Source: a bacterium (GTDB lineage Bacteria; RBG-13-61-14; DATKZS01). Taken from it: a DNA stretch of 64,000 nt. Below, piece by piece: positions 25,901 to 43,900 of this stretch (position 1 is its first letter; each line of letters starts with the position of its first letter). Position numbers: made by a program. The stretch lies in the NCBI GenBank assembly GCA_963674965.2, contig CAXXFL010000007.1, positions 160,001 to 224,000 on the forward strand, written 5' to 3'.

Positions 25901-28900
25901 GACGGCCGCTGCCTCAAGGCCTTTCACGGCGAAAAAGGCCCGCTCCGGGATTATAGTCCACTGACGACCGACGACCCCGCGGCCCTGGCCGAGGCCGAGG
26001 GCGTGGGTCGGGTAATCATCATCGAGCGGGGGACCCCCCGGAAAATAATGCACCGCGTACAGTCGGGCCTGACCCTGGACATGAACTTCGGCCAGCAGGC
26101 GCTGCTCATTTACGGCGAGATCAGAAAAGAAATGGGCCAGGGCATCAAAATCCATCCCCGCCCCAAAATGCCCGACGTAAAATACGGCGCCATTAACACG
26201 GCCGTCAAGTTCATGGCCCCTCCCAACGAGCTGATCATGGTCGCGATCTACGACGAAAGCGGCGAAATCAGGGACAGCAGGGGCCTGCCCATCGTCTGGT
26301 CCGGCATCATGAGGCTGGACAAGGACTATAATATCGACCTCCTCAGCACCACCGACAGCCTGGTCTCGGCCGGCCTCAAGGTCTCGGACTGGAAAAAGGA
26401 CTTCGAGTCCATGAACGCGCTGGCCAAAAAGGTCTGGCAATCCAATTTGTTCGCGGCCTACCACCTTCCCCTTACCGCCGTTCCCGAGTTGGTAAAGCGG
26501 GCGAAATCCGGCAATCCCGGCAAAGCCCTGCTCGAGATGAGGAAAGAGAAAAAGATCATCATCGATCCATTCCCCCTTCGTCTCCGGACCCTCCTGAAAA
26601 TGGGCGGGATGATGAAAATAAAATAGGCAAACAATAACGGATGCTTAATCGATCACGGACCCGATCTCGCTCTCCCGATCAAATCCCTGAAGGCCGTCAG
26701 GCATATTATGCATGGCGGTCTTTTATTATCCGCTGAAATCATTATTTTTTTTCCTTGAATTCTTTATATCGATCATCTATCTTAACCAAAGCGCGAAAAT
26801 CGTGCCCGCGAGCGAAGGAGCGCCTCTCACGCGACACATGGGAATCATTCCCGATCGAGTAAAATCTTGTCTTTACTCGTCAAGTAAATTTGAGGTAATA
26901 AACGTCTTTTCGAGCCAAGCTTTGTACGGGAGAACGCGTCATGAAAAGAATTTTATCAATCGGTACAACCCTAGCCATCATCCTCCTCGCCATGCTTTCT
27001 TCACCCGCCCGGGCGCAGGACTCCGACGCGGACGGCATGCCCGACGCCTGGGAAAACGCGCATGGATGTCTTCAGGCGGGCACGGCCGACGGCGGAGTGG
27101 ATTACGACTCGGACGGCCTGACCAGCCTGGCCGAGTACCAGTATTCCCCCCAAATGGACCCGTGCTCGGCCGACTCCGACGAGGACGGGAGCGATGACGG
27201 CGACGAGTACTCGTCCGGCTCGAACCCAGCGGACGCCAGGATCGTTCCCGGCTACGTCCGGGAGGGAAGCGAAAAAAGGATCACCTATACCAACTCGGCC
27301 TCTCAGTATCCCTCCCTGCAATGGGCCGATTCCGTGTACGGCCTGTCCTGGACCGACTACTACTCGGGCGTGGCGGAAATCTACCAACGGCGACTCGAGC
27401 TGGATGGGGACACGCTCGGCTACTGGCAGAGAATCTCCTACTACGGCAACGCGGTCCAGTCCAGCCTGGCCTGGTCGGGCTCCGAGTTCGGACTTTCCTG
27501 GAACGATACCGGCGGCGAGATCAAGTTCCTCCGTATCAGCGACGGCGACTCGATAATCGGCTACCCCATAACCGCGGTCATGCATGAGGCGGGCAACGAA
27601 ACTCTTTACCCGGAGCTTGTATGGGCCGACACTCAATACGGCCTGGTCTGGTCTCGCGGTAACGGCCAGTTTCGGCCCATGGGCGCCGACGGCGACACCT
27701 CCTCCTACTCCATCATGGACGTCAGCATCCACGGGGCCCTCAGTCCGCCCTCCATGGTATGGACCGGGTCCGAGTATGGACTGGCCCTGCACGACGACAC
27801 GGGCATAACCTTCCGCCGACTCGATCCCTCGGGAATGGGTCTCAGCATGGCCTACCTGGGCGACTTAGGCCAGAACCCGTCCGCGGCCTGGACCGGCTCC
27901 GAGTTCGGCGTCGTCTGGGACAGGAACGACCTGGACGGACAGGCCGTGTACTTCGCCCGCCTCTCCGCCCAGGGCGCGGTAATCGAGAGCGACATAAGAC
28001 TGACCGATCTCGACCTTTCCTGTTACGACCCTTCCATCGCCTGGAACGGCTCGGTCTACGGCGTGGCCTGGTCCGACTCGGCCATGCCCGCCAACGCGGA
28101 GGTCTATTTCAAAACCATCTCCCTCCAGGGGGAGGACAGGGGAAACGTTTCGGCGGCCTCGACGGGCTTCGACTCGAGCGACTCCCCTACCCTGGCCTGG
28201 AACGGCCACGGCTTCGGGCTGGTCTTCCGGGACCGGCGAGACGCCAATTACGAGATTTACTTCGCGAGCTTCGAGCCCGACGCCGATGGGGACGGACTTA
28301 CCGAGGCCATGGAGTCGGCCCTGGGGACCAGCGCCTCCGACTGGGACAGCGACGGCGACGGCATGGCCGACGGATGGGAATACTACTTCTCCTATTGCGG
28401 CCTTAACGCCAACTCGGTGGACGCCGGCCAGGACCCCGACGGCGACGGCGTGTCGAATATCGACGAACACTCGCTGGGAACCATCCCCTGCGACCCCGAC
28501 ACGGACGACGACATGCTCTGCGACGGCGACACCGGCGTCATGGACGGAGCGACCATCTGCTATCCCGGCGAGGATGTCAACGTCAACGGCGTGATCGATC
28601 CCACCGAGACGGACCCAACCGACCAGGACACGGACGACGACCAGTTGTCCGACTACGAGGAGGTATACTCGCATTCGACCGATCCCCTCGATCCCGACAC
28701 CGACGGCGGCGGCGAACTCGACGGCAAAGAGGTCTTTTTCGCCCGCGACCCCAACGACCCGGCCGACGACTGGGCCGAGATCGACATAGGCGACGGCTCG
28801 GACCTCTGGCATTACCCTCTCGCCGCCTACTACCACGACGCCAGGACCCAGGTCATCTACAAGGCCTCGGAAATCGGGAGGTCGGGAGAGCTTAAGTCCC

Positions 28901-40900: not shown

Positions 40901-43900
40901 ACGACGAGGAGCCGGGGCTGGGCCTGGATCCCCTCGAGTGGGACACGGACGGCGACGCTCTTCCCGACGGCTACGAGGTGGCGAACTCGAGCGGCCATGC
41001 CTTGAACCTCGATCCGCTCGACCCGGGCGACGGCTGCGCGTCTGACTTTGACGGCGACGGCAACGCCAACTGCCACGAGTATTACAACGGCACGGACATT
41101 TGGTCGGAGAACGTGACGGGCGGCTCGGCCTGCTTCAGCTGGGCGGACTCGGGGAGCACGGTCAGCGCCGACGGCCTGGTTTCGCCTCTGGACCTCGGCG
41201 CCTTGAACGCCCGCGCGTCGCTGAAGGACGCGTCCTACACGGGCGTGCTCCCACCCAACGGCGACTCGCAGGAACTCGATATGGACGAGATTATCTCGGC
41301 GCTCGACCTGGCGGTCCTGCGCCAGATGGTTGCCAACCTCTCCACCTCCGGCAACCCCAGCCGTCCGGTCGCCCTCGAGGTTTACGGCGACACGGCGGTC
41401 ACGGCCGAGGTGGGAAGCACGGTGCGGATCGAGCTGGGCGCCCTCAACCAGGGCGGCAAGCACACATCGAGCCTGGGGATCATCTTCACCATCGACCCCT
41501 CCTCGACCGCCTCGGCCACCCTCCTCGGCGGCGACGGCGCGGCCTCGAGCGGCCGCTACGACGTGACCGGCCCCATCGCCACCGGCGGCCGCTCCGCCAT
41601 CGTCCTCCTCCCCACCGCCCCCGGCTCCCTCCTCCTCAACGCCCACCTCCCCCCATGCGGCGTTGACGGAAAAGGCCGCTACTGCGAAGAGCTGATCAAA
41701 CAGCCCCTGGTGACGGTGACGGTGGAGTAGAGGAGAATTATTTTTGCCCCAGCCGATCCAATGGAATTCGGCTGGGGCTAAATTTTAATTATTGTACTTG
41801 GACGCTCGCTTTCTCAAGTATCGCTCTTGCTTCTTTTACCATCCTGTCGATAAGAATTTTTACCGGTACCAAGTCATGAACCAGTCCTATGGACTGTCCC
41901 ACGTTAATTGATCCAGCGTTGACGTCGCCGTGTTTCCAAATCTTTGGTGACAGGCTGCCGGCCAACAGCGGAAAGATATCCTTCGTGTTTCCATTTCCAT
42001 TTTCTATCTCGATAATTTTTTTAATGGTCTCGTTTTTAATCGCTCTTCCTTGGAGACCGATGGAATTTCCGTAAAGGACGGTTTCATACTCTTGGCGTCG
42101 AATGATCTCTTCTTGAATATTGGGATGGACTTCGCATTCATCGGTGCAGATAAACCTGGTAGCCATCATGACCCCATCCGCTCCCAGGCATAAAGCCGAG
42201 GCCAGCCCTCTTCCGTCGGCTATGCCGCCGGTAGTGACGATAGGTATGGAAACCGATTCGGCGATCCTTGGCGTCAGGATCGAGGTGGCCACGTTGTCGT
42301 TCAATGGATGTCCTCCCTCCTCGACTCCGGCCGCCAGCACCGCGTCGTAGCCTACTTTTTCGCAGTGCAGAGCGTGTCTTACGGATCCCAGTTTATGTAT
42401 CATCTTCACGCCTGCGATTTTTAGTTTATCGATATAGGTCCCCTTCAAGAACCGGTCGAGAGGACTTCCCGCTATCTCGACGGCGGCTACTTTTTCCTCG
42501 ATGCAGACGTCGAAGATTTCCATGTATCTTTTTTCGCTGATCCTGAAATGTGGGAGCATGGTAACGTTCATCCAGAAGGGCTTATCGGTCATTGACCTTA
42601 CTTCCTTTATGGCCTCGCGGATTTTGTCCTTGTTGGCGTAATTGGCCGCCGTAAGGTTCCCAAGTCCTCCGGCCTCGGATATGGCGGCGCAAAGCCTGGG
42701 CTTTGCCAGGACCATCATTCCTCCGCAAAGTATGGGATACTCGATTCCGAGCATTTTTGTGATTCTCGTTTGCATGTGTTCGGTCTCCTTTCGGTGGATA
42801 TTTTTTCCGAATCTTTCAATACGATCATATCAAAGTGGCGGCCTTGTTCCAAGGTATCATAACAATCGTTATCTGCCACTTGCACGCGGACGATGGACAT
42901 GGTAGCTTTCGATAAACAATTTCGCGCCCGTCGGCGACGTTCTTCGCTTCGCGGCGCCTCAAATCCAGGAGGACCGAAAATGACCGAGACCAATCCCATG
43001 ATCAACGCTTTCAAGAACGGCATCGCCTTTTCGAAGCGGGCCGGCATCGACTCGACCCGCATGGACAAGGAAAGCATAGACCTTGTAATGCCTCTCCAGC
43101 CCAACGTCAATCACATCGGCACCATGTACGCCGGGGCCCTTTTCACTCTTGGCGAGATGATGGGCGGTGCGGTGGCTCTGGTATATTTCATGGAGCATCG
43201 CCTGATTCCCATCGTCAAGTCGCTTAACATCAAGTTCCTCAAGCCGGCCAAGTCCGACGTTACGACGAGCTACTCGATGACCGAGGATGAGGTCAAGCGC
43301 ATCATCGAGGAGTGCAAGGAGAAGGGCAAAGCTGAGTACGCCATCACCCTCGAGCTTAAGGACAAGGACGGAGTCGTGGTTTCGGTAACGGAGGGTCTTT
43401 ACCAGGTTCGTGGATCGTGGGCGAAGAAATAATCGATTTCTCGAGGCGATTAGTAATGATGGGGCCGAGGGATATACGCGGCGCCTCGGACCCCTGATTG
43501 GCGAAGGGCCTTAGTTATGCCTATACCTGGCAACCTTCTGACCACGGCCATGGCGGTAATGCCCCACCGGGACGTCGAGCGCGCCCTCGAGGTGGCCCTC
43601 TCTTTGGACGTTCCCTTCTGGCCCCAGCTTCCCCGCTACGACTATTATGAGGATATGTACGTTCAGGCCTCGGAGCATTTTCCAGGAATCGTGCTTGACG
43701 TTCCAAATCGGAGCCTTTCCTTTGACCTCGATAAATTTTTCTCTGAATATGAGGAAGCGCTGTCTCGCTACGACGACCCGGAGTACTTTGACGTCAGCGA
43801 GACCTACTCCGTCGTTTACCATCGTTTCCTTTCACTCGACCTTTCGGGCCGACCCGCTATAAGGGGGCAGTTGGAGGGGCCAATCAGCTTCGGCTTTAAC

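Follow-up and report, generated by a model that had tools for sequence, protein, structure and literature searches.

Repeated gene conversion as the probable cause of a near-identical 3' block in six giant secreted-protein genes of one bacterial genome

In Helicobacter pylori, babA/babB, sabA/sabB and the hop family are dispersed adhesin paralogues whose 5' parts vary, whereas their conserved 3' parts are exchanged by gene conversion. The six genes described here resemble them as dispersed, putative surface-protein paralogues with a variable 5' and a probably converted 3' part. However, here the genes measure 10-15 kb, the homogenised 4.9 kb includes an enzyme domain, all six genes are complete and carry their own signal peptide, and there is neither evidence of phase or antigenic variation nor a host.

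Recurrent conversion that keeps paralogues of one genome more alike than their age predicts was described by Wang and Chen (2018, PMC6053082) for 26 genes, which in that account are mostly key members of pathways and complexes and are homogenised whole. Paralogues of one genome that are unexpectedly alike, here probably through recurrent conversion, are common to both cases, but in the present giant secreted-protein genes homogenisation is confined to the 3' third, and the long persistence belongs to the cases in that account. Giant1-5 of Apilactobacillus kunkeei (PMC12863079) are described as extracellular proteins of 3,000-8,000 residues with a common C-terminal attachment-type domain, the diversity of which is shaped by short intragenic recombination tracts, mostly between strains. 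They are similar to the present genes as a giant extracellular family with a common C-terminal domain and intragenic recombination. In contrast, the five A. kunkeei genes are consecutive in one cluster and have an SH3b-like C-terminal end, and they are not known to have a near-identical 4.9-kb block or a peptidase.

Six giant genes with a common 3' block

One of the six genes, gene A, lies in the window (the whole stretch of 64,000 nucleotides that was analysed), with the following features (coordinates, strand, feature and its basis):

26941-41730, +, giant gene A, 4,929 codons plus stop (ORF list; ATG at 26941 after GGGAGAA)
26941-27015, +, signal peptide of 25 codons (read by eye)
27016-36634, +, variable N-terminal part with alternating TSP3 calcium-binding repeats and propeller-like units W-x-G-S-E-[FY]-G (Pfam TSP3_bac, E 1.5e-21)
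36635-37010, +, ragged 5' edge of the block, where the copies join in turn (alignment)
36868-37887, +, Ig/FN3-like domains, head of the module (weak Pfam matches: BiPBP_C 22.7 bits, Big_13, PKD_6)
37011-41730, +, core of the module, 98-100% per 100 nt in all six genes (alignment; depth 80-108 compared to 14-18 in the flanks)
37879-38850, +, legumain-like (C13, clan CD) cysteine peptidase domain (Pfam, 25.6 bits; His codon 38221-38223, Cys codon 38374-38376)
39469-39708, +, CarboxypepD_reg domain, with a second stretch after it (Pfam PF13620, E 7e-17, two stretches)
40120-40980, +, internal TSP3-type repeats of ~240 nt, 68-73% alike (internal blastn; NCBIfam CglD-type repeats)
40816-41727, +, C-terminal domain family: TSP3 repeats, dockerin-like helix pair at ~41185-41331 and terminal Ig-like sandwich at ~41365-41724 (homologues, model)
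41731-41778, +, short common tail (5-8 nt), then a copy-specific GC-rich inverted repeat (alignment)

The preliminary description placed the start of gene A at 26992. This ATG is internal to the gene, and the 17 codons gained from 26941 complete a signal peptide, MKRILSIGTTLAIILLAMLSSPARA followed by QDSD, which by eye and without a predictor is of the Sec type. The starts of genes B and C were likewise moved, from C7:451132 to C7:451144 and from C6:625305 to C6:625359. At the corrected starts, a hydrophobic N-terminus of the signal-peptide type is common to the six paralogues.

The six ORFs, of 3,359-4,929 codons, are all open over 10-15 kb and end in the same terminal sequence, ...GTGGAGTAG. 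They are located on three contigs, each copy set in unique sequence within contigs of 0.87-1.25 Mb. Nearly all figures of the preliminary description were reproduced. By self-megablast, all 15 pairs gave alignments of 4,884-5,210 nt with 97.645-99.225% identity, as had been reported (97.6-99.2%). The six 3' ends formed an isolated repeat component with exactly six members and 15 edges, and at ≥90% identity no second piece of at least 400 nt linked any of the 15 pairs; previously none above 500 nt had been seen. In the MAFFT alignment, the block common to the six ORFs is gap-free over roughly the last 4,920 nt up to the stop codon, from which positions are counted here. Mean identity per 100 nt was 0.96-1.00 within the block compared to 0.44-0.60 upstream and 0.39-0.46 downstream.

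The block and the sequence before it also differ in synonymous divergence: in all 15 pairs dS was 0.024-0.072 within the block, compared to 1.17-1.80 (saturated) over the preceding 1,000 codons. The 5' parts, for which 27-44% protein identity had been given, are 32-44% identical in the best BLASTP pieces and 29-43% globally over 1,000 codons; the latter range also holds between the N-terminal part of gene A and the other five genes. Upstream of the block, genes A, D and F are colinear across 1,231-1,682 residues at ~40% identity. A BNR/sialidase-like lead for the N-terminal part of gene A was weak (atlas score 0.84-0.90). GC3 was 0.88 in the module and 0.76-0.81 in the N-terminal parts, but this excess is little informative because the unconverted older paralogues also reach 0.855.

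Both edges of the block are staggered. At the 5' side, the likeness begins at ~-5,210 between D and F; it extends to A from ~-5,095, to B and E from ~-4,895 and to C from ~-4,775. Copy D is itself a mosaic there, being F/A-like up to ~-4,800 and then carrying a 75-nt patch of the B type (-4,796 to -4,722; window 36934-37008); the edge patches differ by ~30% over 75 nt. The shared part had been said to end at the stop codon, whereas its 3' ends are in fact not uniform and lie 5-45 nt past it: all six copies share 5 nt, A, B and C 8 nt, D and E 17 nt, and B and C 45 nt. This makes at least five distinct 5' and four distinct 3' end points. The inverted repeat downstream of gene A, with a loop of 11 nt by our own reading, was not called by a simple terminator scan.

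The encoded module is under purifying selection. Variable codons number 167 of 1,620, with 124 synonymous only and 43 changing an amino acid, counts identical to those first obtained, and dN/dS in the block is 0.06-0.18. Of the 43 amino-acid-variable sites, 25 fall in the Ig/FN3-like head, where the first 44 residues alone account for 17, and the peptidase domain has a single one in 300 residues.

Recombination within the block

Over the last 4,863 nt we counted 200 variable sites, of which 90 are informative and fall into 21 patterns, close to the 88 sites and at least 19 bipartitions reported before. The block from -4,690 to 0 (window 37040-41730) has 147 variable sites, 59 informative and 88 private to one copy. 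The 59 informative sites support 17 or more splits, compared to the 3 that a single tree of six copies allows, and 56% of the informative site pairs are incompatible. Gene conversion had been proposed earlier without a formal test; three tests were now run on the sequences as assembled, and all were significant. The PHI statistic was 0.14-0.34 compared to 0.56 after permutation (none of 5,000 permutations gave a value as low), neighbour similarity was 0.86 compared to 0.44 (0 of 5,000), and Sawyer's run test gave an SSCF of 15,876 compared to 5,260 +/- 284 (0 of 2,000, and likewise for MCF). The four-gamete bound was Rmin 15, i.e. at least 15 exchanges.

The patches differ in age. Identical runs between pairs reach 1,681 nt (A-E), with 1,199 nt in B-D, and other patches are 6-9% different. 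Copy F has 18 private changes within 300 nt, 16 of them at third codon positions by our own reading, and copy C has 7 within 10 nt (-1,398 to -1,389). A search of this genome for donors found none for several variant clusters, including those in F and C; some of them may have been imported from other strains or may derive from copies since lost.

These data are probably best explained by repeated gene conversion among the six genes, old members of one family of giant secreted proteins, which keeps their last ~4.9 kb alike. The identity of 97.6-99.2% would result from patchy, repeated and non-reciprocal homologous recombination between the dispersed copies, in which each copied tract measures from tens of bases to over 1 kb. 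Alongside this, the 1,620-residue module is under purifying selection. Tracts could begin and stop only in sequence of high identity, which would make the block edges steep yet staggered; the 5' edge would thus lie inside the first Ig/FN3-like domain and the 3' edge a few bases past the stop, where the flanks are unrelated. The exchange presumably runs via RecA-type recombination within this genome, and the spread of patch ages suggests that it is still going on.

It is unlikely that a single recent event or short burst put one module on five existing genes, followed by point mutations and a handful of exchanges, with homogenisation now past. The low and fairly even mean dS of the block across pairs would fit such a history, as would the 88 of 147 core variable sites that are private to one copy, which is what a star-like history would give, and there is no second strain with exchange in progress. 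On the other hand, the number of splits and the Rmin of 15 speak against it, the patches span ages that correspond to anything between no difference across 1.2-1.7 kb and ~6-9% locally, and the many different end points indicate many separate events. A single recent spread would not produce events that differ so much in age, and the spread would itself be gene conversion.

It appears very improbable that assembly or polishing of a 4.9-kb repeat from a mixed sample created the mosaic, let alone the number of copies, as an artefact. The runs with this sequence hold ~1.7-1.9 billion letters of contigs at an organism depth of only ~15-18, which points to a mixed sample as the source of the genome; the genome is also repeat-rich. 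The read-derived contigs collapse the six copies to majority paths, so that they cannot confirm phase and variant phase is as assembled, and polishing with multi-mapping short reads could have manufactured part of the mosaic. However, in two runs of one sample (X2 and X3) the block had a depth of 80-108 and the unique flanks 14-18, a ratio of ~5.5-6.2 and thus about six-fold in both runs, although this is probably the sample behind the genome assembly and the depth is therefore not independent of the assembly data. The B/D-type patch was found on its own read-derived contig at ~2.5 times flank depth, in line with its presence in two copies. Moreover, the edge patches are too unlike for swaps by mis-mapped reads, every copy stands within unique sequence of a large contig, and the six frames are open. 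In the same assembly, IS families were resolved with copies 98.6-100% alike, which makes sequencing noise an unlikely source.

The most improbable reading is that the variation came mainly from outside the cell, by recombination with modules of related strains: the donorless clusters in F and C would suit it, and a run of another study (X1, a wastewater metagenome) has module-like contigs at 96.8-99%, some letters of which match single copies in our own comparison (C at -4,065/-4,047, F at -1,818, E at -182), but X1 is weak evidence because its depth is 3-5 with 23 of 30 bins covered, and population exchange leaves unexplained both the 98-99% likeness of six genes with unrelated flanks and the haplotype blocks common to particular pairs.

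The encoded module and its legumain-like peptidase

The 1,620-residue module would consist, in order, of Ig/FN3-like domains, a legumain-type His/Cys peptidase, two CarboxypepD_reg sandwiches, calcium-binding TSP3 repeats, a dockerin-like helix pair and a terminal Ig-like domain. The preliminary description had assigned the peptidase weakly, lacking a PDB match and a fold; support now comes from family, motif and fold. On the gene A copy, Peptidase_C13 scored a marginal 23.4-25.6 bits against a cut-off of 22.8, but among the query and its 31 homologues 31 of the 32 sequences matched this family, with a best E of 1.3e-32. The motifs MVDHGG and YDACRSG are intact in all six copies, and we take their His and Cys, by analogy with legumain, to be the catalytic positions; the aligned sequences have the His in 30/32 and the Cys in 28/32 cases. 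A profile of the set reached GPI transamidase and asparaginyl endopeptidases in the PDB (E 1.5e-6 to 1e-3). The structural model (pLDDT 86.3, pTM 0.82) had human legumain as top Foldseek match (E 6e-12), and the best 50 matches listed comprised legumains, plant asparaginyl endopeptidases/ligases and GPI transamidase (TM 0.49-0.63).

The predicted peptidase is thus firmly placed in family C13, with a His/Cys dyad and a modelled caspase-haemoglobinase fold. It is like legumain, asparaginyl endopeptidase and GPI transamidase (MEROPS C13, clan CD) in Pfam family, in the order His-Gly ... Ala-Cys and in predicted fold. Unlike these, it shares only 12-17% sequence identity with solved members and lies ~3,700 residues deep in a giant secreted protein of a bacterium, where it is flanked by Ig-like domains on one side and CarboxypepD_reg domains on the other.

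The CarboxypepD_reg match reported before was recovered on a 600-aa piece with the E-value listed above. The C-terminal domain also ends at least 11 other ORFs of this genome (51-62% identity) and is present in four related genomes. Its model (pLDDT 74.9) has a sandwich that matches S-layer SbsC, filamin and intimin, and two helices (residues 124-134 and 162-172) that form the dockerin-like pair. Pfam Dockerin_1 matched 9 of 23 members of this C-terminal family at E ≤0.1 (best 1.3e-5) but not the gene A copy, and the PDB profile search with the domain reached dockerins only at E 0.42. Cohesin had one match in the genome, a borderline 25.2 bits in a family member on contig C4.

Relatives of the module and its possible role

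Outside the six genes, the module was found at 45-48% identity in two genomes of the phylum and at 42-62% in two older paralogues of this genome, which roughly agrees with the 40-51% (2 of 12 phylum genomes) and 44-62% given before. Among the genomes searched there was no close relative; the genome stands alone in its genus, with 45-48% as best module match, and paralogues and orthologues were therefore compared on the C-terminal domain only. In the tree of this domain most sequences cluster with others of their own genome (5 changes where the minimum is 4; the mean after shuffling was 10.2, and none of 200 shuffles was as low), which separate expansions fit equally well.

The same habit of conversion seems to occur elsewhere in the giant-protein family. 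Two genes on contig C4 share a 360-nt patch at 100% and are otherwise 56-81% alike, and a second group in this genome has four 3' ends that are 91-93% alike. Similar likeness was seen in two other genomes, in a pair (91-100%; G003) and a trio (80-96%; G004).

In these proteins the module would be what all six use for processing or anchoring, and binding would fall to the variable N-terminal arrays. It is conceivable, if doubtful, that the 1,620-residue tail serves as a chassis for surface display: a legumain-type transpeptidase or self-processing enzyme, comparable to GPI transamidase and plant peptide ligases, would link the giant protein covalently to an acceptor on the cell surface or set its variable head free. 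Docking would be the task of the dockerin-like/Ig end, and conversion would ensure that every chassis still fits the same partner as the heads diverge. If true, this would be a new bacterial way to mount giant adhesins, in a little-known phylum. Overall, the six genes probably represent a new and large case of gene conversion, a well-known mechanism that here would act on an unusual scale, rather than a new kind of system.

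Gene A and the common 3′ block of six giant genes

The genome studied (6.5 Mb, 7 contigs) carries six giant genes with near-identical 3′ ends, here called A to F. Gene A lies in the window (C7:160001-224000), B on the same contig (C7), C on C6 and the other three on C5. In the ORF list, gene A is a single frame of 4,929 codons. The preliminary description had placed its start at 26992, which is an internal ATG; the ATG at 26941, which is preceded by GGGAGAA, supplies the hydrophobic segment of a signal peptide, judged by eye to be MKRILSIGTTLAIILLAMLSSPARA|QDSD. The parts of the window that are referred to below are:

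26941-41730, + strand: gene A
26941-36480, + strand: N-terminal part of gene A
36868-41727, + strand: 3′ module of gene A
36934-37005, + strand: site of a patch common to B and D
38197-38223, + strand: nine codons up to and including the putative catalytic His codon

The other five ORFs, as named in the preliminary description, were open as well, and all six share the ending ...GTGGAGTAG. Once the starts of B and C were corrected, a signal-peptide-like N-terminus was recognised by eye in all six genes. Flanking ORFs were listed for each of them, and the genes proved to be spread over three contigs and surrounded by ordinary genes. Three of the seven scanned neighbours of A matched Pfam, all with metabolic functions (nitronate monooxygenase, thioesterase-like, nitrite/sulphite reductase). 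No recombinase or transposase family was matched by any of the seven, and an in-frame inserting mobile cassette was therefore abandoned as an explanation. Scans at the gene ends detected neither a promoter upstream of A nor a terminator downstream of it. Near B and C, two small ORFs (C7:447880-448383 and C6:627541-627990) have a prepilin-type N-terminus (KGFTLIELMIVVAIIGIL...), and each is followed by an ORF of 703-714 codons.

When a 5.7-kb query from the end of A was searched against the genome, five further places were found with 96.9-99.0% identity over 4,896-5,329 nt, along with many weaker matches (65-73%) that covered no more than the final ~0.8-1 kb or internal repeats. In a whole-genome self-comparison the six 3′ ends formed an isolated family of exactly six members, and the 15 pairwise matches described earlier were obtained again (4,884-5,210 nt, 97.645-99.225%). 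The block is gap-free in the alignment of the six tails, with a mean identity per 100 nt of 0.96-1.00 inside, 0.44-0.60 upstream and 0.39-0.46 downstream. Several insertion-sequence families are resolved at 98.6-100% in the same assembly, and the 1-2% differences among the module copies are therefore not base-calling noise.

The edges of the block are ragged. Counting back from the stop codon, the similarity between D and F begins at about -5,210; A enters at about -5,095, B and E follow at about -4,895, and C comes last, at about -4,775. D itself is a mosaic that resembles A and F up to about -4,800 and then carries a 75-nt patch (-4,796 to -4,722) shared with B alone, in which ~25 positions differ from the other four copies. 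At the 3′ edge the six genes share 5 identical nucleotides past the stop, A, B and C share 8, D and E 17, and B and C 45, including a hairpin. So many different end points indicate many events.

The N-terminal parts are homologous but old. At best, BLASTP pieces reach 32-44% identity; in A, D and F, 1,231-1,682 upstream residues are colinear at ~40% identity. Over a stretch of 1,000 codons ending 5,250 nt ahead of the stop, all 15 pairs show 29-43% amino acid identity and a saturated dS of 1.17-1.80, whereas dS inside the block is 0.024-0.072. The purifying selection proposed for the block is borne out by a dN/dS of 0.06-0.18: of 167 variable codons among 1,620, 124 vary only synonymously and 43 change an amino acid. 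Seventeen of these 43 sites fall within the first 44 residues of the module, which form the ragged edge, and only one lies in the 300-residue peptidase domain. Because the variation is purely synonymous in three quarters of the variable codons, a diversity-generating or hypermutation mechanism was rejected.

Two older paralogues are present in the same genome, a full-length one directly upstream of F (59-62% in the module) and another on C6 (42-58%). Both are too diverged for exchange with the six. At third codon positions the module has a G+C of 0.88, compared with 0.76-0.81 for the N-terminal parts of the six genes; set against the 0.855 of the unconverted older paralogues' modules, the value of the module is uninformative about GC-biased conversion, which could account for at most a small excess. 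A search of genome contigs for related loci gave two draft-genome loci at 52-60%, the window's own record not being among the results. In one related draft, an 8,314-codon open frame on contig G001:C7 (L006 region) has numerous TSP3-type repeats matching the repeat region of the module. The genome studied is also rich in other repeats. Long matches of 7.8 kb (91%), 6.1 kb (97%), 3.7 kb (93%) and 3.1 kb (97%) link C2:31792-93605 with C6:735535-894925, a further large region of duplication or exchange. Among the multi-copy elements, which are presumably insertion sequences, are a 1.78-kb unit at more than 10 places (99.7-99.9%) and families of 9, 9, 7 and 6 copies (1.0-1.6 kb, 97-100%).

Recombination among the copies as assembled, and contig depth in sequencing runs

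The gap-free region common to all six copies (-4,690 to the stop, 4,691 columns) contains 147 variable sites, of which 59 are informative and fall into 25 patterns. For the last 4,863 nt these numbers are 200, 90 and 21. A single tree of six sequences allows just three informative splits. Of the informative site pairs, 56% were incompatible, and the four-gamete bound (Rmin) requires at least 15 exchanges. Gene conversion had been proposed from the variant pattern without a formal test; on the sequences as assembled, the permutation tests now support it. The pairwise homoplasy index was 0.14-0.34 compared to 0.56 after permutation, and neighbour similarity was 0.86 compared to 0.44 (for both, none of 5,000 permutations as extreme). 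Sawyer's SSCF reached 15,876 against a permuted 5,260 +/- 284 and the longest fragment spanned 42 sites against 16 (none of 2,000 as extreme). With 3% of positions variable, simple arithmetic predicts recurrent mutation at just two or three sites, for which clustering is not expected.

The ages of the patches differ widely. Identical stretches extend over 1,681 nt between A and E, 1,199 nt between B and D and 1,127 nt between A and C, and F has 18 private changes within 300 nt, 16 of them at third codon positions as read from the site table. Next to these ages and the 15 or more exchanges, a finished burst of spreading followed by only a few exchanges appears unlikely, even if it is the best placed of the alternatives to continuing conversion.

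A search of sequencing runs found two runs of one sample containing 91-92% of the sampled words and a third run from another study, X1, containing 10%. Logan contigs, which collapse the six copies, were placed on window positions 35800-42100. Their depth was 14-18 on the unique flanks and 80-108 in the block, that is ~5.5-6.2-fold higher. At the site of the B/D patch, a contig with other letters had a depth of 36-46, about two copies' worth. The contig depth thus supports both the six copies and the existence of the B/D patch. The assembly was probably made from these two runs, and variant phase rests on it, which is the main weakness of the case. We regard an assembly or polishing artefact as very improbable, and a mainly foreign origin of the variation as the least credible explanation of all.

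Run X1, labelled as a wastewater metagenome, covered 23 of 30 bins at a depth of at most 5.8. The absence of X1 cover on the unique flank of A is uninformative. Module-like X1 contigs at 37252-41637 (99-608 nt, depth 3-5) were 96.8-99% identical with 2-17 differences, and some of their letters equal those of single copies here when compared with the site table. This is a weak hint that they possibly derive from a related strain in which this module is likewise multi-copy.

Possible donors of the variant clusters were also sought elsewhere in the genome; the matches reached only 68-86%, so that no donor was identified, and the private cluster of F had no better one. The nine codons at 38197-38223 are CCT TTA ATA ATT TAT ATG GTC GAT CAC in A, E and F, as opposed to CCG CTC ATT ATC TAC ATG GTC GAC CAC in B, C and D. 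These eight synonymous differences are all toward A/T in A, E and F; the older paralogues and relatives have mostly G/C-ending codons at this place. The A/T-rich version may have been imported as a patch, or it may be a cluster of rare codons under selection.

The legumain-like peptidase and the C-terminal domain

Taken by itself, the window copy matched Peptidase_C13 at 23.4-25.6 bits (Pfam cut-off 22.8) and CarboxypepD_reg at E 7e-17, together with weak Ig-type matches, while NCBIfam reported only CglD-type thrombospondin-3 repeats. A search with the 350-residue peptidase region against 1.84 billion representative proteins gave 2,480 matches at E <=0.001, 345 of them at <=1e-30; nearly all of the best 150 of the 2,480 are multidomain proteins of more than 800 residues. 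We aligned 32 sequences, namely the query, five pieces of paralogues or relatives and 26 of the 150 listed matches, chosen for a length of up to 1,100 residues. Peptidase_C13 was matched by 31 of the 32 (best E 1.3e-32), the His of D-H-G was present in 30 and the Cys of D-A-C in 28, and both residues are intact in all six module copies.

The legumain assignment had been considered weak for lack of a PDB match and of a fold. Searched against the PDB, the profile of this alignment found GPI transamidase, asparaginyl endopeptidases and legumain with E-values between 1.5e-6 and 1e-3; NHL-repeat structures scored better owing to extra domains in some rows of the profile. An AlphaFold2 model of the peptidase domain (mean pLDDT 86.3, pTM 0.82) had as its best Foldseek matches human legumain (6e-12), plant asparaginyl endopeptidases/ligases and GPI transamidase, with TM values of 0.49-0.63. 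Profile matches and legumain-type fold together resolve both weak points in favour of the assignment. Judging from its domains, we infer that the module is a part shared for processing or anchoring, and that its legumain-type peptidase looks active. The N-terminal parts have TSP3 repeats in all six proteins and a C-type lectin domain in B, and for repeated propeller-like units the sole lead, to BNR, was weak. In word searches of open-access text, no description of a legumain-like domain in giant proteins of bacteria came up, and the search on bacterial C13 homologues gave unrelated papers only.

A domain made up of the last ~300 residues recurs in this genome as the terminal part of at least 11 other large ORFs, at 51-62% identity, and also occurs in four related genomes. 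Its model (pLDDT 74.9) consists of a helix pair followed by an Ig-like sandwich, the latter matching S-layer SbsC, filamin and intimin, with cohesin at rank 31. Dockerin_1 of Pfam was matched by 9 of 23 family members, the window copy not being among them, and we call the domain dockerin-like, not a dockerin. A name was not obtained from Pfam for the window copy, from the atlas (score at most 0.79) or from the fold search, which returned generic Ig-like sandwiches.

Signs of such homogenisation are also seen elsewhere in this family. The C4 neighbours L018 (C4:294323-295234) and L019 (C4:288151-289059) are 100% identical over 360 nt of the domain and 56-81% around it, a textbook conversion patch. 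A pair in the related genome G003 is 91-100% alike in the domain compared to 61-71% upstream, and a trio in G004 is 80-96% alike in the domain. The ORF of L019 also contains the genome's only Pfam Cohesin match (25.2 bits). A second group of four 3′ ends in the genome studied (C3:492795-493930, C6:176653-177485, C7:425010-426210 and C7:440034-441332) is 91-93% identical over 0.8-1.3 kb and resembles an earlier or slower instance of this process. Three of them end open frames of 1,397-2,279 codons with nearly the same final peptide, and for the fourth a script found no containing frame. In the tree of the domain, the rows cluster mostly according to genome, with 5 label changes where 4 is the minimum and shuffling gave a mean of 10.2 (none of 200 shuffles as low), which agrees with concerted evolution and equally with separate expansions.

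Probable partial-gene concerted evolution

We consider it likely that the six tails have been homogenised by homologous recombination that copies tracts between the copies. Both ends of a tract would need identity, so that the block would limit itself and keep steep, slightly different edges. Amino acid changes would be purged by selection, and the N-terminal arrays, being out of reach of conversion, would diverge.

Conversion between paralogous surface-protein genes with a variable 5′ and a conserved 3′ part is known, for example from the bab/sab genes of Helicobacter. Concerted evolution of prokaryotic paralogues has already been surveyed (PMC6053082), and giant extracellular protein families shaped by recombination have been described (PMC12863079). 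Our word searches of open-access text found no comparable block, which is not proof of absence. Six copies of 4.9 kb make the case notable for size, and it also stands out by clean statistics and by the lineage of origin.

The six dispersed 10-15 kb genes are probably a large and clean bacterial case of partial-gene concerted evolution, with good statistical support, in which synonymous divergence steps by roughly 25-fold or greater at a ragged boundary. Such repeats collapse or break in short-read genomes and the related drafts consist of 90-820 contigs, those at family level of 90-340; similar cases are therefore probably under-counted in uncultured lineages. The module also points to a large group of bacterial legumain-like domains within big multidomain proteins, to which the 2,480 representatives belong. 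For the family itself, the finding means that one functional part can stay uniform family-wide while the remainder diverges freely.
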